Program-made: the position numbers and the translations under genes | From: an uncultured Bacilli bacterium | GTDB taxonomy: Bacteria; Bacillota_I; Bacilli_A; RF39; UBA660 | Reading direction: 5' to 3' | Assembly (NCBI GenBank): GCA_934101185.1 | Contig: CAKOQD010000001.1 | Location: 100,960 to 164,959, forward strand | Length of the DNA: 64,000 nt | In this document: positions 2,731 through 30,235 of the stretch, piece after piece | How the letters are laid out: each line of letters starts with the position of its first letter | How positions within the stretch are numbered: position 1 is the stretch's first letter | Notes under the pieces: generated by a model | Told to the model about the DNA's origin: nothing | The model's database searches: none | What the model saw: only the letters and a program-made list of their open reading frames with translations

Positions 2731-3981
2731 TTATAACTTAAGCACCTGTCCCACTGAAAGTGTATTACCAGAAAGTCCATTAAGACTCTTTATCCTATCA
2801 ACCGTAGTATTATTATCCCTAGCAATACCATACAAAGTATCACCTCTTTTAACAACATAAGTCTTTATATTCGCACTATCAGGAATAACAAGCTGTTGCC
2901 CTATAGAAAGAACACTACTACTAAGCTTATTCGCATTCTTTAACTCATCTACACTAATACCATATAAATTAGCAATCTTATACAAACTATCTCCCTTAAC
3001 AACAGTATAAACCTTAACACTTGCATTATTCTCACTAGAAAGTCCAGGTATCAAAAGCTCTTGCCCAATTGACAAACTATTACTACTAAGACTATTCAAC
3101 CTCTTAATATCCTCTACACTAACACCATAACTCTTAGCAATACCATACAAACTATCACCCTTTTTAACATAATAAACACTAGTATCACTTTTCTCTACAA
3201 TATCAGGAATTCTAAGAACCTGTCCAATAGAAAGAACATTACTAGTAAGTTTATTAAAAGTTTTTAAATCCTCAACCGAAACATCATAAAGCCTAGCAAT
3301 ACTATATAAACTATCACCCTTCTTAACCGTATAATAATCTCCCTTCGAAGTAGGAACATAATCATTCTTAGTATAAATAGCAATAGCTCTAACAACAGCC
3401 TCACCATAATCCTCATAATTATTAACAAACTTATTCAAATCATTACTATTATTAACACTAGCATAATTAATAATTACACTCTCACTATCACCAGTATTTC
3501 TAATTATATAATCACTATCAAACGCAGTATCCTCTTCCATTCTAAGTTGATAATACTTATTAATATCAATATCACTATTTTCAAACTGTTCTGCCAAAAT
3601 CTTAGCAAACCTATCACTATCTCTAAGAGCATAAATAATCTCAACCCCAGGAACCGAAGACGAAGACAACCCATTCGTAATAACAATAACATCATCACTA
3701 AAACCAAAACTACTATCTATAAAATCAATTCTCTCATCCAAACTAATATTATTATCACCAGTCCTAGTAATAACATTTTCTATTCCAAGCTCATCAAGTC
3801 TATTTTTTATATAATTAGAAACAAGTAAAGAAACATTCTTCTCAAGAACATTACCACTCTTAAGACCAGTATCACTACCTCCACCAACAGGATTAATTAC
3901 CACTTTATAATTCATAAAAATCACCAATAAATTATATGAAAAAATAAAAAAAATAGCACAAAGGCTATAAAACAATCTCAT
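2731..3981 (-). CDS. N-acetylmuramoyl-L-alanine amidase (Amidase_3) with four C-terminal LysM repeats
   Basis: N-terminal TM segment, amidase_3 core (VVINPVGGGSDTG..EKNVSLLVSNYIKNRL), and four repeats of YxVKKGDSLYxIAxxYxVSVEDxK..LSIGQxLxIP. Confidence 0.8.
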   Translation of the reverse strand: MRLFYSLCAIFFIFSYNLLVIFMNYKVVINPVGGGSDTGLKSGNVLEKNVSLLVSNYIKNRLDELGIENVITRTGDNNISLDERIDFIDSSFGFSDDVIVITNGLSSSSVPGVEIIYALRDSDRFAKILAEQFENSDIDINKYYQLRMEEDTAFDSDYIIRNTGDSESVIINYASVNNSNDLNKFVNNYEDYGEAVVRAIAIYTKNDYVPTSKGDYYTVKKGDSLYSIARLYDVSVEDLKTFNKLTSNVLSIGQVLRIPDIVEKSDTSVYYVKKGDSLYGIAKSYGVSVEDIKRLNSLSSNSLSIGQELLIPGLSSENNASVKVYTVVKGDSLYKIANLYGISVDELKNANKLSSSVLSIGQQLVIPDSANIKTYVVKRGDTLYGIARDNNTTVDRIKSLNGLSGNTLSVGQVLKL

Positions 3982-4474
3982 CTATACTCATTCTAGGTCT
4001 AGCATGAACATCTTGATTCTTATATCCAATCGCAACACAAGAGACCATATCCATATCAACTCCAAAATAATCTTTAATTTCATCGTTTACTTTATCAGTA
4101 TTAGCAATCCATAAACTACCAAGTCCCATTTCAGTAGCCTTCAAACACATATTCTCAACAAAAGCACCAATCGATAAAATATCATTCTTATCATAAGAAG
4201 TAGCAAACACTAAAATAAGTTTATTAGCTTCTCTAATAACATTCGCAGTATTTAAAACACTAATATCATCATCACTTTTTTTACTCTCTAAAAAACTTGC
4301 AACCATATCCTTATTCTCTGAAGAAACAACCTTAACCCTCCATGGTTGCCTATTTTTAGCAGAAGGAGCCTTTATACCACATTTAATTATCTCAAAAACA
4401 TCAGACAAACTTACAATATCATCCGTAAACTTTCTAATACTCCTTCTAGAACTAACTACTAAATCAAAATCCAT
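3965..4474 (-). CDS. nitroreductase family protein
   Basis: VVSSRRSIRKFTD....KAPSAKNRQPWRVKVV matches the nitroreductase N-terminal motif. Start refined to MDFDLVV. Confidence 0.7.
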   Translation of the reverse strand: MDFDLVVSSRRSIRKFTDDIVSLSDVFEIIKCGIKAPSAKNRQPWRVKVVSSENKDMVASFLESKKSDDDISVLNTANVIREANKLILVFATSYDKNDILSIGAFVENMCLKATEMGLGSLWIANTDKVNDEIKDYFGVDMDMVSCVAIGYKNQDVHARPRMSIDEIVL

Positions 4475-21933: not shown

Positions 21934-23697
21934 ATGTGTGGAATAGTAGGATACAAAGGTAACAATAATAATGCTATAAAAGTAGTAATCGAAGGACTAG
22001 AAAACCTAGAATACAGAGGCTACGATTCAGCAGGTATAGCCTACCTAAAAGAAAATAAAATAATTATAGAAAAAGAAGCAGGAAGAATCAAAAATCTAAA
22101 AGATAAACTAGATTTAGAAGACAAATCAAACCTTGCAATTGGACACACTAGATGGGCTACTCATGGCATCCCAACAAGAACCAATGCTCATCCTCATCAA
22201 GTAGGAAAATTCACCATGGTACATAACGGTATAATAGAAAACTACCTAACTCTAAAAGAAGAACTGCTAAAAAATAATTATACTTTTAAAAGTGATACTG
22301 ATACTGAAATAGCATGCGCTTACTTAGACTATCTTTATAAACAAGAAAAAGACATTTTAAAATCATTACAAAAACTAATCCAAGTAATAAAAGGATCATA
22401 TGCATTTGGAATAATATGCGAAGATGATAAAGACCATTTATACGCACTAAGATCATCAAGTCCTTTAATAATAGCACTAGGAAAAAATGAAAACTATATA
22501 GCATCAGACGTACCTGCAATACTTAAATATACAAATAAATACATAATTTTAGAAAACTATGAAATAGCTAAAATAAGCAATAATAATATAACCATTTATA
22601 ACAAAGAACTACAAGAAGTAAACAAAACAATCAACACCTATGAAGGAACATATGAATCAAGCATAAAAGGAGACTACGAACACTTCATGCTAAAAGAAAT
22701 AAACGAAGAACCAGACACATTTGAAAAAACCATAAACAACTGCTTAGAAAACAATTTCAAAGACATAGACTTAAAAAAATACACAAACATTCACATAGTA
22801 GCATGCGGTTCTGCATACCATGCCGGACTAGTAGGAAAATACTTAATTGAAAAATATGCAAACATTAAAGTATACACCCAAGTAGCAAGTGAATATAGAT
22901 ATGAAAAAACATTTTACGATAAGAATACACTAGTCATTTTAATATCCCAATCTGGTGAAACAGCAGACACATTAGCAGCCTTAAGAAAAGCAAAAGATAA
23001 TAACATCGACACCTTAAGTATAGTAAACGTTTTTGCATCTAGCATTGCAAGAGAATCAAAATACGTAATCTATACTAAAGCAGGATGTGAAATTGCAGTA
23101 GCAACAACAAAAGCTTACCTTGCTCAATTAACAGTATTAATTGCTCTAACACTAAAACTAAGTAACAAAAAAATAACTAAAAATGAAATAATAAAACTAA
23201 AAGAGCAAATAACAAACTTAATAAATAAAGATGATTATAAAACTATAGCAAATAAAATATATAAAGCCAAAAACATATTCTTCATAGGAAGAGGAATTGA
23301 CTATGCACTTTGTATGGAAGGATCATTAAAACTAAAAGAAATATCATACATAAACAGCGTAGCCTATCAAGCCGGAGAACTAAAACACGGTACAATATCC
23401 CTAATCGAAGAAAATACTCCAGTAATAGCAATACTAACCGAAGAAGACCTTATAGAAAAAACAATAAGTAATATTAAAGAAGTAAAAGCACGCGGTGCTC
23501 ATACAATAATAATTACAAACAAAGACATACAAGGAGATTTCTACGATGAAAAAATAATAATTCCTAAAACAAATGAATTATTCCAACAATTACTTACAAT
23601 AATACCACTTCAACTAATAGCATACGAAGTAGCAAAACTAAACAACTGTGACATAGACAAACCAAAAAACCTAGCAAAATCAGTCACTGTAGAATAA
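21934..23697 (+). CDS. glmS: glutamine--fructose-6-phosphate aminotransferase GlmS
   Basis: MCGIVGY N-terminal nucleophile, two SIS domains, C-terminal KSVTVE. Confidence 0.9.
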   Translation: MCGIVGYKGNNNNAIKVVIEGLENLEYRGYDSAGIAYLKENKIIIEKEAGRIKNLKDKLDLEDKSNLAIGHTRWATHGIPTRTNAHPHQVGKFTMVHNGIIENYLTLKEELLKNNYTFKSDTDTEIACAYLDYLYKQEKDILKSLQKLIQVIKGSYAFGIICEDDKDHLYALRSSSPLIIALGKNENYIASDVPAILKYTNKYIILENYEIAKISNNNITIYNKELQEVNKTINTYEGTYESSIKGDYEHFMLKEINEEPDTFEKTINNCLENNFKDIDLKKYTNIHIVACGSAYHAGLVGKYLIEKYANIKVYTQVASEYRYEKTFYDKNTLVILISQSGETADTLAALRKAKDNNIDTLSIVNVFASSIARESKYVIYTKAGCEIAVATTKAYLAQLTVLIALTLKLSNKKITKNEIIKLKEQITNLINKDDYKTIANKIYKAKNIFFIGRGIDYALCMEGSLKLKEISYINSVAYQAGELKHGTISLIEENTPVIAILTEEDLIEKTISNIKEVKARGAHTIIITNKDIQGDFYDEKIIIPKTNELFQQLLTIIPLQLIAYEVAKLNNCDIDKPKNLAKSVTVE

Positions 23698-23722
23698 AAG
23701 GATAGCCAAAACTATCCTTTTA
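23697..23722. terminator. bidirectional terminator between glmS and htrA
   Basis: aaggatag-ccaaaa-ctatcctt hairpin with T-rich flanks. Confidence 0.55.
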
Positions 23723-24827
23723 ATTTTCCTAAAACAATTTCCTTAGTAACACTCTTACCATTTCTAATAAATGTAATAGATACTTTATCCCCTGCTTTAT
23801 GTTTATAAAGTTCATACCTTAAGTATGCAATATTATCAGTAGAATTGCCACCAAGTTTGGTGATAACGTCACCCTTTACTAAAACACCATTAACACAAGA
23901 ATCTTTCTCAACTTCTGCAACAACTACTCCAGTATCAACCGAAGTACTAATATCAATATCAAAATATCTTGAATAAGACGCATCACTTGCATTATACATT
24001 CTAATACCTAAATAAGGTCTTTCAATAGCCTTACCACTTTCAAAAACAGAAATATTAGAAATTACATCCTCAATTGGAAGAGCAAACCCCATTCCTTCAA
24101 TTTCGCTTTTAACAATCTTTAAAGAATTAATACCAATTACTTTTCCGTTTGAATCAACCAAAGGACCTCCACTATTACCAGGATTAATTGATGCATCAGT
24201 TTGTAAAACCTTTAAAACATAATCATCAACATTACTATTTGATGATGAAAGTGATAAACTAACAAGTCTATCTTTACCAGATAATATTCCACGTGTTACT
24301 GTACCTCTATATTGATAATCAACCGGAGTACCAACAGTAAACACAGTATCACCTAAACGAACCTTAGAACTCTCTCCTATTTCAGCAACTTTTAATACAT
24401 CAGAAGAATTAATCTTTAATACCGCAACATCTAAGTATTCATCACCACCAACATAAGAAGCATTAATAACCTTATCATCACTTCTTACAACCTTAAGCGA
24501 AGTATTACCACTAACAACATGATAATTAGTAAGAATATAACCATTCTTAGAATCAATCTTATATGCAAAACCAGTTCCAGTCGAATACAACTTATTATTC
24601 TTATAATTTTGTACCAAGAACACAGCTTTATAAACCTTATCAACAGCATCCGCTATACCCTTATCAGTAACAGTAACCTTATTTTCACACCCAGTATAAC
24701 ATGTACCATTATTTGAAGTATTAACAGTAAAAAGCTCATCTTTATAAACATATATACCACCAACAGTAACAAATATACCAAGTAAAAATATTAAAATATA
24801 ACTAAGCATTTTCTTATCATTATTCAT
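23712..24827 (-). CDS. htrA: HtrA/DegP-family serine protease with a PDZ domain
   Basis: N-terminal TM segment, trypsin-like triad (TNYHVV; GNSGGPL) and a C-terminal PDZ domain. Confidence 0.8.
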   Translation of the reverse strand: MNNDKKMLSYILIFLLGIFVTVGGIYVYKDELFTVNTSNNGTCYTGCENKVTVTDKGIADAVDKVYKAVFLVQNYKNNKLYSTGTGFAYKIDSKNGYILTNYHVVSGNTSLKVVRSDDKVINASYVGGDEYLDVAVLKINSSDVLKVAEIGESSKVRLGDTVFTVGTPVDYQYRGTVTRGILSGKDRLVSLSLSSSNSNVDDYVLKVLQTDASINPGNSGGPLVDSNGKVIGINSLKIVKSEIEGMGFALPIEDVISNISVFESGKAIERPYLGIRMYNASDASYSRYFDIDISTSVDTGVVVAEVEKDSCVNGVLVKGDVITKLGGNSTDNIAYLRYELYKHKAGDKVSITFIRNGKSVTKEIVLGKLKG

Positions 24828-25775
24828 CTAAAACAACTCCTTTTTCTCTATATCAACAATATCCATATAATTATTAGGAAATCCCATCCTATCAAGAACC
24901 TTATCAATAGGAATACTCCTTAAATTAAACTCTAAATTACTAATCGCTTTATCAACCTCATTAATCATATCCTTAACTTCATTATCCTTAAGCAAAGACT
25001 TTAAAATTATAACAAGAGCATATAAATCATTCTTACCATATATAAACTCATTATCCATCATAGGAATATTAAGTATTCTATGATATTTAGTATCATTAAT
25101 ATACTTTTGAGTTCTATTATCAAACATTATATCCTCATGAGCACATAAATTACGATAATTAGAAAGTATAACCAAGTAATTAGAAAAAACATCTATATCC
25201 AAATCATACAAATCAACAATCTCATACTGATCCTCTTTCTTTAAAACAGAAAAAAGTTCAGAAACAATTCCAAAAGATAATACTTTAACAAGAACCCATA
25301 AAGGAATATAACCATAATTATTAACATAATGTTGAGTAGCAGCATGCTGAGTAGCATTAGTTTTAATTTGTCTTTTCATCTTAGATATAAGATCACTAAC
25401 CTGCTTTCTCTTCGCACCATTATTAACAAAGTTATTTGGATTTAAATAATCTTTTTCTTTATAACCATATTTTTTAGACAATTGATAAGAAATAATAGAC
25501 TTTACATTATTCTCAACAATCAAAATATTTTTAAAAAATATACTTCTAAGTCTTCGATCAAACAAAAACAAACTATATAATTCCTCAATTTTAGTCCCAG
25601 GAATATACATACTATTATCTGAAGATTTCATAAACAAATGACGATAACCATTCAAAAAGAAATAATTTTCACGAAGTAATATTTCCTTAGCATAATCTTC
25701 ATTATCTATAACTAATCCTTTATTTCTAAGGATTTCAACTTGTTCATCTAAAGTTTTAAATATTTTCTTCCCCAT
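24828..25775 (-). CDS. Abi2-family (AbiD/AbiF-like, HEPN-domain) putative abortive-infection protein
   Basis: Abi_2-like layout including LSFGIVSELF and an Rx4H HEPN motif (RNLCAHED). Own promoter (TTGAAA-18-TGcTATAAT at 25799-25828) and AGGAGAA RBS. Confidence 0.5.
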   Translation of the reverse strand: MGKKIFKTLDEQVEILRNKGLVIDNEDYAKEILLRENYFFLNGYRHLFMKSSDNSMYIPGTKIEELYSLFLFDRRLRSIFFKNILIVENNVKSIISYQLSKKYGYKEKDYLNPNNFVNNGAKRKQVSDLISKMKRQIKTNATQHAATQHYVNNYGYIPLWVLVKVLSFGIVSELFSVLKKEDQYEIVDLYDLDIDVFSNYLVILSNYRNLCAHEDIMFDNRTQKYINDTKYHRILNIPMMDNEFIYGKNDLYALVIILKSLLKDNEVKDMINEVDKAISNLEFNLRSIPIDKVLDRMGFPNNYMDIVDIEKKELF

Positions 25776-26763: not shown

Positions 26764-26929
26764 AATTTAAATCCTCCTATTTTTTTATATTAATTAATAT
26801 AAGAGTTCCCAATTCCCATAAAAATCAATATATAAGAAAATGTACCGACTAAAATTATACTAAAATTATACGTTTAAGTCAATAGTTTTAGCACTTTTTT
26901 AACACACTTTAAACATTATCTTACAAAAC

Positions 26930-28507
26930 TTACTTTCCACTTTCTCCATAATTAGATAAAACCCTAGCAGAAGGATCATCAACATCACATCCTACCCAGT
27001 TTTTATTTGGCATCCAATAATCAACAATCATATCATCCAAAGAAGGATAATACTTTTCAAATATTTCACGATAAAGCAACGATTCTTTAGTAAAAGGTCT
27101 ATTTTTAATCGGATACTTAAGTATCAAACGTTCAAACTCATCATCACTATATTTTTCTGAAGCATACTCTTTTAAATAATCAACCATCGAATGACCAACA
27201 GCATCACTAAACGCAGCCTTTTCACGATATAAAATATCATCAGGCAAATACCCATCAGAAAAAGCTTTTCTTAATAAATACTTTCCTTTATTATAAACAT
27301 TCATTTTCTTTAAAGGATTAATCCCCATAACATAATTAACAAAACTCAAATCTGCAAAAGGAACCCTAGCCTCAAGAGAACACCCAGATATACACCTATC
27401 AGCACGTAAAACATCATACATATAAAGCTCCCTTATTCTTTTTTCACTCTCTTTTTGAAACTCCAAAGCTGATGGAGCAAAATCAGTATACTTATATCCA
27501 AAAAGTTCATCGCTAACTTCACCAGTAAGTAATACCTTTATATCAGTATTATCCCTAATCCACTTAGTAAGAATATACATTCCAATAGAAGCCCTAATAG
27601 TAGTAATATCCCAAGTCTCTAAATGATATATAACCTCATCCAAAGAAGAAATAACATCAAAAGGAGTCATAATAACCTCAGTATGAAAACTTCCAATAAA
27701 ATCCGCCACCTCTTTAGCATACTTTAAATCAATAGCATCACTTTCCATACCAATTGCAAATGTTCTAATTGGCTCTTTCATATTTCTAGAAGCAATACAA
27801 CATACTAAACTAGAATCTAAACCACCACTAAGTAAAAAACCACAAGAAGCATCAGAATCAATCCTTTTTATAACGCCTTTCTTAAGTTTTTTTCTAATAT
27901 TATTACAAATAACATCTAAATCATCATCAATAAATTTACTATATTTACAAGCATCATAATACTGAACAAACTCCCCATCTTTATAATAATAACCCGGAGG
28001 AAAAGGCTTAATACCTTTACATAATCCAACCAAAGCCTTTGCCTCACTAGCAAACATTATTTGTCTACTGACAAGAGAATATCCATAAAATAAAGGTCTA
28101 ATCCCAATCGGATCACGCGCGGCAATAAAACTTTTTCCATCAAAAATGACACAAGAAAACTCAGCATCAAGTTTTTTAAACATTTCAACTCCATATTCAT
28201 TATACAAAGGAAGTAGAACTTCACAATCACTATTTGAACAAAATCTATACCCTTTCTTTTCCAAAGATTTTCTTATCTTTCTAAATCCAAATATTTCACC
28301 ATTACATACAACCTTCATATCTTTATAATAAAATGGTTGCATTCCAGCATTAGATAAATCCATAATAGACAAACGATGAAAACCCCACATTCCATTAGTA
28401 AAATCAGTCCTAGAAAAATCAGGACCTCTATAACTAATTTTACAAAACCCCTTTAAAAACTCTTCTTCACTAATATCGTTTTTAGTATAAACCATAAAAC
28501 TACACAT
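26930..28507 (-). CDS. asnB: asparagine synthetase (glutamine-hydrolysing), AsnB family
   Basis: N-terminal Cys2 amidotransferase domain (MCSF..GMWGFHRLSIMD) and a PP-loop SGGLDSS. Confidence 0.8.
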   Translation of the reverse strand: MCSFMVYTKNDISEEEFLKGFCKISYRGPDFSRTDFTNGMWGFHRLSIMDLSNAGMQPFYYKDMKVVCNGEIFGFRKIRKSLEKKGYRFCSNSDCEVLLPLYNEYGVEMFKKLDAEFSCVIFDGKSFIAARDPIGIRPLFYGYSLVSRQIMFASEAKALVGLCKGIKPFPPGYYYKDGEFVQYYDACKYSKFIDDDLDVICNNIRKKLKKGVIKRIDSDASCGFLLSGGLDSSLVCCIASRNMKEPIRTFAIGMESDAIDLKYAKEVADFIGSFHTEVIMTPFDVISSLDEVIYHLETWDITTIRASIGMYILTKWIRDNTDIKVLLTGEVSDELFGYKYTDFAPSALEFQKESEKRIRELYMYDVLRADRCISGCSLEARVPFADLSFVNYVMGINPLKKMNVYNKGKYLLRKAFSDGYLPDDILYREKAAFSDAVGHSMVDYLKEYASEKYSDDEFERLILKYPIKNRPFTKESLLYREIFEKYYPSLDDMIVDYWMPNKNWVGCDVDDPSARVLSNYGESGK

Positions 28508-28525
28508 ATAAATACCTCCCTATAA

Positions 28526-28800
28526 TAAATTAAAAATAACCAGTATTCATCCTACAAAGGGACGAAAACTGGTTATTCCGCGGTACCACCCAATTTATCA
28601 TAAATATTATTTATATGATCACTTTCAGTTCTAACAAACCTAGTATTAAGATAACGGATACAGACCGGCTTAGCCTACTTGCAAACTTTCGGTAAGCAAC
28701 TAAAAAGTGTTATTCACAAAGACTTCATTATTAGTTTCACACTATCACTAACTCACTTTAAACTCCATCAAAGCTACTTCTCTTTCTCAAAGTTATTAAA
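28526..28800 (-). ncRNA. T-box riboswitch leader of asnB (probable Asn specifier)
   Basis: On the minus strand, AAATTGGGTGGTACCGCGG at 28578-28596 matches the T-box consensus. It is followed by a terminator (AATAACCAGT...ACTGGTTATT plus U-run, 28530-28577), then GGGAGG and the ATG. A candidate specifier GAAUAACA (AAC, Asn) lies on the 3' side of stem I. Confidence 0.7.
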
Positions 28801-28803
28801 AAA

Positions 28804-28833
28804 ATTATAATACTCAAAAAAGCAATATGTCAA
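28804..28833 (-). promoter_or_regulatory. sigmaA-type promoter for the asnB T-box leader
   Basis: TTGACA (28828-28833), 18-nt spacer, TATAAT (28804-28809). Confidence 0.55.
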
Positions 28834-28885: not shown

Positions 28886-28962
28886 TGGTGACCCGTACGG
28901 GATTCGAACCCGAGAATGCCACCGTGAAAGGGTGGTGTGTTAAGCCGCTTCACCAACGGGCC
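28886..28962 (-). tRNA. tRNA-Glu (anticodon UUC)
   Basis: Cloverleaf GGCCCGTTGGTGAAGCGG...CCACCCTTTCACGGTGG...GGTTCGAATCCC...CCA; anticodon loop CTTTCAC. Confidence 0.85.
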
Positions 28963-28970
28963 AATAATAA

Positions 28971-29047
28971 TGGCGCCCCAACTAGGACTTGAACCTAGGA
29001 CCCCTTGATTAACAGTCAAGTGCTCTAACCAACTGAGCTATTGAGGC
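28971..29047 (-). tRNA. tRNA-Asn (anticodon GUU)
   Basis: GCCTCAATAGCTCAGTTGGTTAGAGC...CTTGACTGTTAATCAAG...GGTTCAAGTCC...GCGCCA. Confidence 0.85.
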
Positions 29048-29052
29048 ATATA

Positions 29053-29129
<77 letters not shown>

Positions 29130-29230: not shown

Positions 29231-30235
29231 TTATGACAATTTTTCACTAGATTTTGCATTAAGATCAAGTCCAGCACGCACACCTTTCTTATATAAAAAA
29301 TATCCACACGCTGCAATCATCGTAGCATTATCAGTACAATATTTCATATCTGGATAACTAAATGAAAATCCATTTATTAAAGCTTCCTTTTCTAAAGCTT
29401 CCCTTATTCCCCTATTCGCAGCAACACCACCCGCTACTATAAGATTATTAATATTATACTCTTTTAATGCCTTAACAGTCTTAAAAACTAATGATTTAAC
29501 AACAACATCTTGAAAAGAAGCACATAAATCTTCCTTATTAATAACATTACCACGTTGTTCTTCATTATGCACCAAATTAATAACAGCACTCTTAAGACCA
29601 CTAAAACTAAAATTATAACTATCATCATTCATAGGAATAGGTAAATGATAACTTACCTTACCAACATGAGCAAGCTTATCAACAAGTGGTCCTCCAGGAT
29701 AACCAATTCCAACAACACGAGCCACTTTATCATAACATTCACCAACTGCATCATCAAGCGTTCCACCAATTTTAAAATAACTCAAATGATCATCCATCTT
29801 AATAAGTTCCGTATGACCACCACTTATAACAAGAGCTAAAAGAGGAAACTCAAGCTCATGACCAATATTATTTGCATAAATATGACCTGCAATATGATGA
29901 ACAGGTATCAAAGGCTTATCATACACATAAGCAATAGTCTTCGCAGCCTCAAGCCCCACCAATAAAGATCCAATAAGACCAGGACCATACGTAACAGCAA
30001 CTGCATCAATCATATCCATCGAAATACCAGACTCCTTAAGACACTTATCAATTACAAAAGTAATATCCTTAACATGATTTCTACTAGCAATCTCAGGAAC
30101 AACCCCTCCATACAACGTATGAATATCTATTTGACTAAGAATAACAGTATTAATTTCACAACAACCATTCTTAACAATAGAAACACTAGTCTCATCACAA
30201 CTACTTTCAATACCTAAAATATAAACATCCTTCAT
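29231..30235 (-). CDS. tsaD: tRNA N6-adenosine threonylcarbamoyltransferase TsaD
   Basis: MKDVYILGIESSCDETSVSIV...HIAGHI. Confidence 0.9.
   Translation of the reverse strand: MKDVYILGIESSCDETSVSIVKNGCCEINTVILSQIDIHTLYGGVVPEIASRNHVKDITFVIDKCLKESGISMDMIDAVAVTYGPGLIGSLLVGLEAAKTIAYVYDKPLIPVHHIAGHIYANNIGHELEFPLLALVISGGHTELIKMDDHLSYFKIGGTLDDAVGECYDKVARVVGIGYPGGPLVDKLAHVGKVSYHLPIPMNDDSYNFSFSGLKSAVINLVHNEEQRGNVINKEDLCASFQDVVVKSLVFKTVKALKEYNINNLIVAGGVAANRGIREALEKEALINGFSFSYPDMKYCTDNATMIAACGYFLYKKGVRAGLDLNAKSSEKLS

Follow-up and report, generated by a model that had tools for sequence, protein, structure and literature searches.

How is the asparagine synthetase gene of an uncultured Bacilli bacterium controlled, and does the tRNA-Asn gene lying a short distance upstream of it have any part in that control? 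Both questions arise from a locus on contig CAKOQD010000001.1 (assembly GCA_934101185.1), which was analysed as a stretch of 64,000 nucleotides (positions 100,960 to 164,959 of the contig), referred to here as the window. A first-pass annotation made from the letters of the sequence had described the leader of asnB as a T-box riboswitch with a probable Asn specifier, and had drawn attention to the tRNA-Asn gene nearby. The reading of the leader as a T-box, of its specificity as Asn and of its target as asnB is upheld by the present analysis, with the exception of the significance implied for the adjoining tRNA gene. We conclude with high confidence that positions 28833-28505 of the window (minus strand) comprise the asnB promoter and 5′ leader, and that this leader is a canonical T-box riboswitch of the transcriptional type with specificity for tRNA-Asn. 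The leader matches the family in sequence and in structure, its helices covary, its specifier is complementary to the tRNA, its two terminal folds exclude one another and the gene behind it is asnB.

The Rfam model for the T-box, RF00230, matches the minus strand at 28799-28555 with 121.2 bits, where the gathering score is 93 (E = 2.6e-26). The match is full length, covering model positions 1-219, so the covariance model does score at this locus. When the whole window was scanned at the gathering score, Rfam returned only this T-box and three tRNAs. The positions of the leader, its parts and its neighbours are collected in Table 1.

Table 1. Features of the asnB leader and of its surroundings, in window coordinates.
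Feature	Position	Strand	Basis or remark
T-box leader	28555..28799	-	Rfam RF00230 covariance match
Sigma-70-type promoter: TTGACA (28833-28828), 18-nt spacer, TATAAT (28809-28804)	28804..28833	-	12/12 consensus matches
Stem I	28699..28793	-	RF00230 alignment, pair list, covariation (helices 1-5), per-sequence helix check
Specifier loop, 3′ side, GAAUAACA	28708..28715	-	RF00230 alignment; leader nucleotides 85-92
Stem II, with GAAA...AGUAG S-turn-type internal loop	28669..28696	-	RF00230 alignment; 84.7% of cells paired
Stem IIA/B pseudoknot	28643..28667	-	Pair list and co-varying loop-linker complementarity
Extra 5-bp hairpin, GGUUU-GUUA-GAACU	28627..28640	-	Pair counting, 18 leaders
Stem III	28597..28619	-	RF00230; 95.3% paired, 5/6 pairs changed on both sides
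T-box sequence AAAUUGGGUGGUACCGCGG	28596-28578	-	Sequence and RF00230
Antiterminator	28559..28591	-	RF00230, folding, covariation (helices 11-12)
Intrinsic terminator, 11-bp outer and 7-bp inner stem (28578-28534), U-rich tail	28532..28578	-	ViennaRNA fold
Ribosome-binding site GGGAGG	28520-28515	-	Sequence
asnB start ATG	28507-28505	-	Sequence
asnB with GGGAGG (28520-28515)	26930..28520	-	Pfam and NCBIfam
tsaD	29231-30235	-	Upstream neighbour, same strand
tRNA-Ile(GAU)	29053-29129	-	tRNA scan
tRNA-Asn(GUU), predicted ligand	28971-29047	-	G73 discriminator, encoded CCA
tRNA-Glu(UUC)	28886-28962	-	A73
Terminator closing the tRNA cluster	28874-28854	-	Terminator scan

The open reading frame behind the leader (26930-28507, minus strand) encodes a glutamine-hydrolysing asparagine synthetase of 525 amino acids with an N-terminal Met-Cys. 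It passes the NCBIfam equivalog model for asparagine synthase B, NF006949, at 587.9 bits with a cut-off of 499, and it has Pfam matches to Asn_synthase and GATase_7. The name asnB given to it at first reading is thus secure, and the gene downstream of the T-box is, as an AsnB equivalog, one that serves asparagine supply. The promoter that had been recognised ahead of the leader, TTGACA-18-TATAAT at 28833-28804, is present with every consensus position matched and is the sole perfect match in the 1.1 kb scanned; it points to a start of transcription at about 28797. The GGGAGG and the ATG were likewise found where the first-pass annotation had them, after the terminator. The ribosome-binding site lies outside the terminator hairpin, and the leader therefore belongs to the transcriptional and not to the sequestrator class.

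Stem I has the composition expected of the family. A K-turn (28791-28786 with 28703-28701) sits at its base and is followed by the specifier loop, an AG bulge of sequence AGUGA (28757-28753) and a distal loop (28746-28736) that reads GAUAGUGUGAA; helices 1-5 are supported by covariation. In the RF00230 alignment the 3′ side of the specifier loop reads GAA-U-AAC-A directly ahead of the closing helix CUUU. The T-box database TBDB locates the canonical specifier slot by counting from the 3′ end of the bulge, where the slot takes up positions 2-4, and the triplet in that slot is therefore AAC (28711-28709), a codon for Asn, with the conserved purine, here A, next to it at 28708. The AAC is complementary to the anticodon GUU of the tRNA-Asn encoded at 28971-29047. 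An AAC specifier within GAAUAACA, about 85-90 nt into the leader, had been put forward as plausible, and both the alignment and the pair list of Stem I bear this out. AAC is kept in all of the 18 leaders that we aligned and, in other species, at 23 of 23 asnB loci that bear a T-box. The base ahead of it varies among the aligned leaders (U, G or A), which excludes the -1 frame. An unconstrained minimum free energy (MFE) fold of the 275-nt leader recovered the terminator and not Stem I (z = -1.33); Stem I of T-boxes is rich in non-canonical motifs, and is commonly missed by MFE folding.

At the other end of the leader, the T-box sequence AAAUUGGGUGGUACCGCGG is present immediately 5′ of the terminator, in agreement with the original description. 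It forms the 5′ side of the antiterminator, in which a 7-nt bulge of the form UGGNACC, here UGGUACC, separates helix A1 (GGG/CCC) from helix A2 (GCGGA/UUCGU). The antiterminator helices are 100% paired across the 18 leaders, and the energy of this element is -4.4 kcal/mol in the canonical fold and -7.0 kcal/mol in the MFE fold. The arms of the intrinsic terminator, AAUAACCAGU (28577-28568) and ACUGGUUAUU (28544-28535), are followed by Us, as had been noted, and the hairpin as a whole (28578-28534) was calculated with ViennaRNA at -22.9 kcal/mol. Since its 5′ half reuses the UUCGUCC of the antiterminator, the two folds are mutually exclusive, with the terminator the more stable of the two. Both energies fall within the range of the Asn T-boxes in TBDB, for which the means are -20.0 +/- 6.3 kcal/mol for the terminator and -7.2 +/- 2.2 kcal/mol for the antiterminator. 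A simple terminator scan misses this hairpin because its stem contains a 1x1 internal mismatch.

The tRNA-binding bases UGGU (28588-28585) lie in the antiterminator bulge. Against the G73-CCA end of tRNA-Asn they make three Watson-Crick pairs and one U·G wobble, so that the UGGN/NCCA pairing anticipated in the first-pass annotation holds, but with a G·U wobble rather than a Watson-Crick pair between UGGU and G73. TBDB accepts a wobble at the position that faces the discriminator. The pattern with which we searched for T-box cores in other species allowed any base at the N of UGGN; of the 23 related loci, 10 have U at this position and 13 have C, and none has A or G. This restriction fits exactly what a G73 discriminator would predict, U and C being the bases able to pair with G.

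The established mechanism of the T-box family, from which we infer tRNA binding and its regulatory outcome here, suggests how these elements would work together. Once transcription has started at about 28797, Stem I would dock tRNA-Asn by pairing of the specifier AAC with the anticodon GUU, while the distal platform of Stem I would stack on the tRNA elbow. An uncharged tRNA would have a free G73-C-C-A end, able to pair with UGGU in the antiterminator bulge; this would stabilise the otherwise weak antiterminator, RNA polymerase would read through into asnB and more asparagine would be made. A tRNA charged with asparagine could not form this pairing, in which case the far more stable terminator (28578-28534 and the Us that follow) would be expected to form and to stop transcription before asnB.

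For the comparison with other organisms, asnB loci were sought with one genome taken per species, and 80 were found. The closest relatives of the protein, at 76-78% identity, come from metagenome-assembled genomes (MAGs) of uncultured gut 'Bacilli', 'Clostridia' or 'Tenericutes'. The exact AsnB protein also occurs on human-gut metagenome contigs, three Hadza assemblies being among the four listed, and those contigs have the same gene order and a leader that is 99.8-100% identical. A T-box core lies 65-100 nt upstream of asnB in 23 of the 80 loci, and of the 20 loci scanned with the Rfam model 17 gave a T-box match ahead of asnB, at 94-130 bits. Within 420 nt upstream of the other 57 asnB orthologues (from the series L014-L080), which belong mostly to Lachnospiraceae, Gallibacterium and Faecalibacillus, no T-box core was present. 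The arrangement is therefore lineage-specific, and asnB must be under a different kind of regulation in those organisms. Counting the present bacterium, the unit of T-box and asnB is common to at least 24 species across Bacilli-like and Clostridia MAGs.

Covariation was assessed by mapping an explicit canonical structure onto an alignment of 18 asnB leaders from different species and counting pairs. Across these leaders 86.9% of the cells in the canonical fold are paired; sliding the partners by 1-3 columns lowers this share to 36-49%. Both sides have changed in 38 of the 53 pairs, and none of 500 shuffles reached the observed values. The predicted canonical T-box fold is thus well supported by covariation. 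RNAalifold, run on a MAFFT alignment, recovered only some of the helices; it also proposed a long-range pairing of bases that follow the specifier with the T-box sequence (columns 105-109/242-246), which shows no covariation and is probably spurious.

The region between Stem I and the antiterminator contains the expected Stem II and Stem III, together with one element that is less familiar. The IIA hairpin (28667-28655) carries the F-box CCGUUA (28657-28652), and its loop GUAU (28661-28658) pairs with a downstream AUAC (28646-28643) as the pseudoknot. Loop and linker co-vary across species, with combinations such as GUAU/AUAC, GUAAU/GUUAC, AGAAC/GUUCU and UUCGC/GCGAA, among others. The less familiar element is the extra hairpin, which follows the IIA/B pseudoknot and precedes Stem III. 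The Rfam consensus does not include it, and the Rfam alignment treats part of it as an insertion of 17 nt. All 18 leaders form its stem completely (100% paired); four of the five pairs show compensatory changes, and the closing U·G is invariant. A T-box ahead of a TrpB-like gene in one of the related loci, L035, has a similar hairpin at the same position, GGAUAU-GUCA-GUAUCC, and the extra hairpin is therefore not specific to asnB. That second T-box of L035, a Clostridia MAG, lies at 3872-4107, scores 104.9 bits and is directly downstream of asnB; the gene behind it encodes 459 amino acids and looks like TrpB, the beta subunit of tryptophan synthase, as judged by eye from the translation. The extra hairpin, with its GUYA-like tetraloop, might represent an accessory module, so far undescribed, that T-boxes of these gut Firmicutes carry, though we consider this unlikely. 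If it has a role, it could for example contact the tRNA, position the discriminator domain or tune co-transcriptional folding.

Two features of Stem I raise the question of whether this T-box is still fully effective. The helix that joins the specifier loop to the AG bulge consists of GCUUUGAU opposite GUCUUUGU, in which good pairs flank three consecutive U·U mismatches (28772-28770 opposite 28720-28718). Rfam flags these as three non-canonical pairs, and the window alone has them among the 18 leaders; most relatives have 7-8 clean pairs in this helix, the equivalent in L078 being AUAUUGAU/AUCAAUAU. In addition, the 3′ strand of the K-turn (28701-28703, minus strand) is UAG where the consensus has GAG, which suggests a non-standard second G·A position. 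The U·U mismatches could weaken tRNA docking, and if they and the variant K-turn impaired it, the leader would be a decaying T-box, with asnB mostly terminated or controlled in some other way. We regard this as improbable. At 121 bits the leader scores mid-range among its relatives (94-130), and all other elements are intact. Independent gut metagenome assemblies contain the leader at 99.8-100% identity and, since these agree, the U·U run is not an assembly error. Relatives show similar deviations, with two U·U pairs tolerated in the same helix of L005 and the UAG strand found in four other leaders (L078, L001, L002 and L007). When the strands are aligned so as to include the U·U pairs, the distance from specifier to platform is preserved and the helix scores -1.7 kcal/mol; an alternative register for the helix, CUUU/GAAG, was rejected, as it scores +6.7 kcal/mol and breaks the conserved geometry.

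A second set of alternatives concerns which tRNA is sensed, and from where. In the +1 frame the specifier loop offers ACA, a threonine triplet, and TBDB does consider the -1 and +1 frames, so that the leader might be read as a sensor of tRNA-Thr. The conservation of this triplet (ACA, with ACC in L007) equals that of AAC, which follows from the conserved purine next to the codon, a base that is A in 17 of the 18 aligned leaders. However, the canonical slot yields AAC, the regulated gene makes asparagine, and the UGGC of 13 of the 23 related loci pairs only with G73, which is present in tRNA-Asn; position 73 of bacterial tRNA-Thr is usually A or U. Sensing of threonine can hence be given very little weight. 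Much the same evidence bears on a T-box for two tRNAs, in which GAA and AAC in GAAUAACA would be read by the tRNA-Glu(UUC) and tRNA-Asn(GUU) whose genes are adjacent to one another upstream. Both triplets are indeed in the loop, and a two-codon T-box has published precedent. Against this, GAA is a conserved triplet of the specifier loop in the family-wide Rfam consensus whatever the specificity, the A73 of tRNA-Glu cannot pair with the UGGC of those 13 leaders, and the tRNA neighbourhood is not conserved. The loop is also of normal size; its 3′ side has the canonical 8 nt and not the enlarged specifier domain of the two-codon NT-box type, and dual recognition is scarcely credible here. As to where the tRNA comes from, the asnB promoter begins 138 nt beyond the tRNA-Asn gene, in the same orientation, and this adjacency would be functional if, for instance, the two were co-transcribed or newly made tRNA were sensed locally. 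Yet a terminator (28874-28854) and the tRNA-Glu gene intervene, the leader has a perfect promoter of its own, and a tRNA acts in trans. The flanking genes argue in the same direction, as a tRNA-Asn gene flanks none of the 23 related loci, one of which (L016) has only a tRNA-Ile, and tsaD and rplM recur as neighbours only on contigs from this one species. A functional role for the adjacency is accordingly most improbable, and the reading to be preferred is that of a canonical T-box with the single specifier AAC, responding to tRNA-Asn supplied in trans.

The position of the tRNA-Asn gene can be given more closely than before. It is the middle gene of an Ile-Asn-Glu cluster (29129-28886) and ends 138 nt before the -35 hexamer; its distances to the specifier and to the T-box sequence are about 260 nt and about 375 nt. 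The first-pass annotation had placed it about 350 nt upstream, across a terminator; the gene and the terminator are both there, with the distances now refined and tRNA-Glu(TTC) also found in between. The importance that had been implied for this proximity does not survive the comparison, which covered flanks of up to 2.5 kb at the 23 related T-box-asnB loci and found no tRNA-Asn gene in any of them. The proximity is specific to this species and probably incidental. A promoter-like site for the tRNA cluster, TTGCAA-17-TATCAT, was noted at 29186-29158 on the minus strand.

Several further observations concern the surroundings of asnB. Downstream of it lie rplM and rpsI. The interval that separates asnB from rplM-rpsI (26764-26929, minus strand) yielded no intrinsic terminator, and rplM has a promoter-like site of its own, TTGACT-17-TATAAT, at 26882-26854; transcripts controlled by the T-box might read on into the genes for L13 and S9. 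An Abi_2 (abortive-infection-like) gene (24828-25775, minus strand) is situated between rpsI and a gene for an HtrA-type serine protease (23712-24827), which it abuts, and the arrangement of rpsI, Abi_2 and HtrA is the same in the gut metagenome contigs (L081-L084). Further along, a glmS-like gene on the plus strand (21934-23697) has a GATase and two SIS domains and gave no match to the glmS ribozyme. The regulatory logic of the leader requires AsnRS; neither asnS nor gatCAB was seen among the ten largest open reading frames of the window.

With respect to known systems, the leader shares with the transcriptional class of the family (RF00230, B. subtilis tyrS type) the K-turn, the specifier loop, the AG bulge, the distal loop, Stem II, the F-box with IIA/B, Stem III, the UGGN bulge and a competing terminator with a U-tract. 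It departs from the RF00230 consensus in the three U·U mismatches of the Stem I helix, in the UAG strand of the K-turn and in the extra hairpin at 28640-28627. The C. acetobutylicum 'NT-box', said to have been described by Saad and colleagues in PNAS in 2013, reportedly responds through two codons to the tRNAs for Glu and Asn. The present leader resembles it in the link to asparagine metabolism and in an AAC that shares its loop with a GAA, but differs in that its specifier loop is of canonical size, its GAA is a generic motif and a second tRNA is unsupported.

Asn T-boxes are common, with 740 AAC specifiers in TBDB, and the terminator and antiterminator energies found here are like those of its typical Asn entries. 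The supplements of Sun et al. (2013; PMC3766115) have a T-box column for Asn in which asnB is entered for both Lactobacillus fermentum IFO 3956 and Clostridium kluyveri DSM 555; they also count asnA and asnB among the biosynthetic genes controlled by T-boxes and include Asn T-boxes upstream of asnA/asnS in lactobacilli. Compared through these published tables, the L. fermentum and C. kluyveri examples resemble the present one in pairing an AAC specifier with an asparagine-related gene; the host here differs, being of an uncultured human-gut Bacilli/'Tenericutes'-like lineage. A full-text literature search for T-box together with asnB or asparagine synthetase returned nothing direct, and the supplements of Wels (2008) make no mention of asn genes.

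The asnB T-box described here is a regulator of an already well-known type, and is new only as a further example, in an uncultured human-gut bacterium. Beyond annotation it confirms textbook biology and raises no new question. The U·U run that is tolerated in Stem I and the extra hairpin in the linker are small structural footnotes, which may be useful to those who study the structural biology of T-boxes. What is gained is a sound regulatory annotation for asnB in this organism, and with it the prediction that the bacterium would make its own asparagine on demand and charge tRNA-Asn directly through AsnRS.
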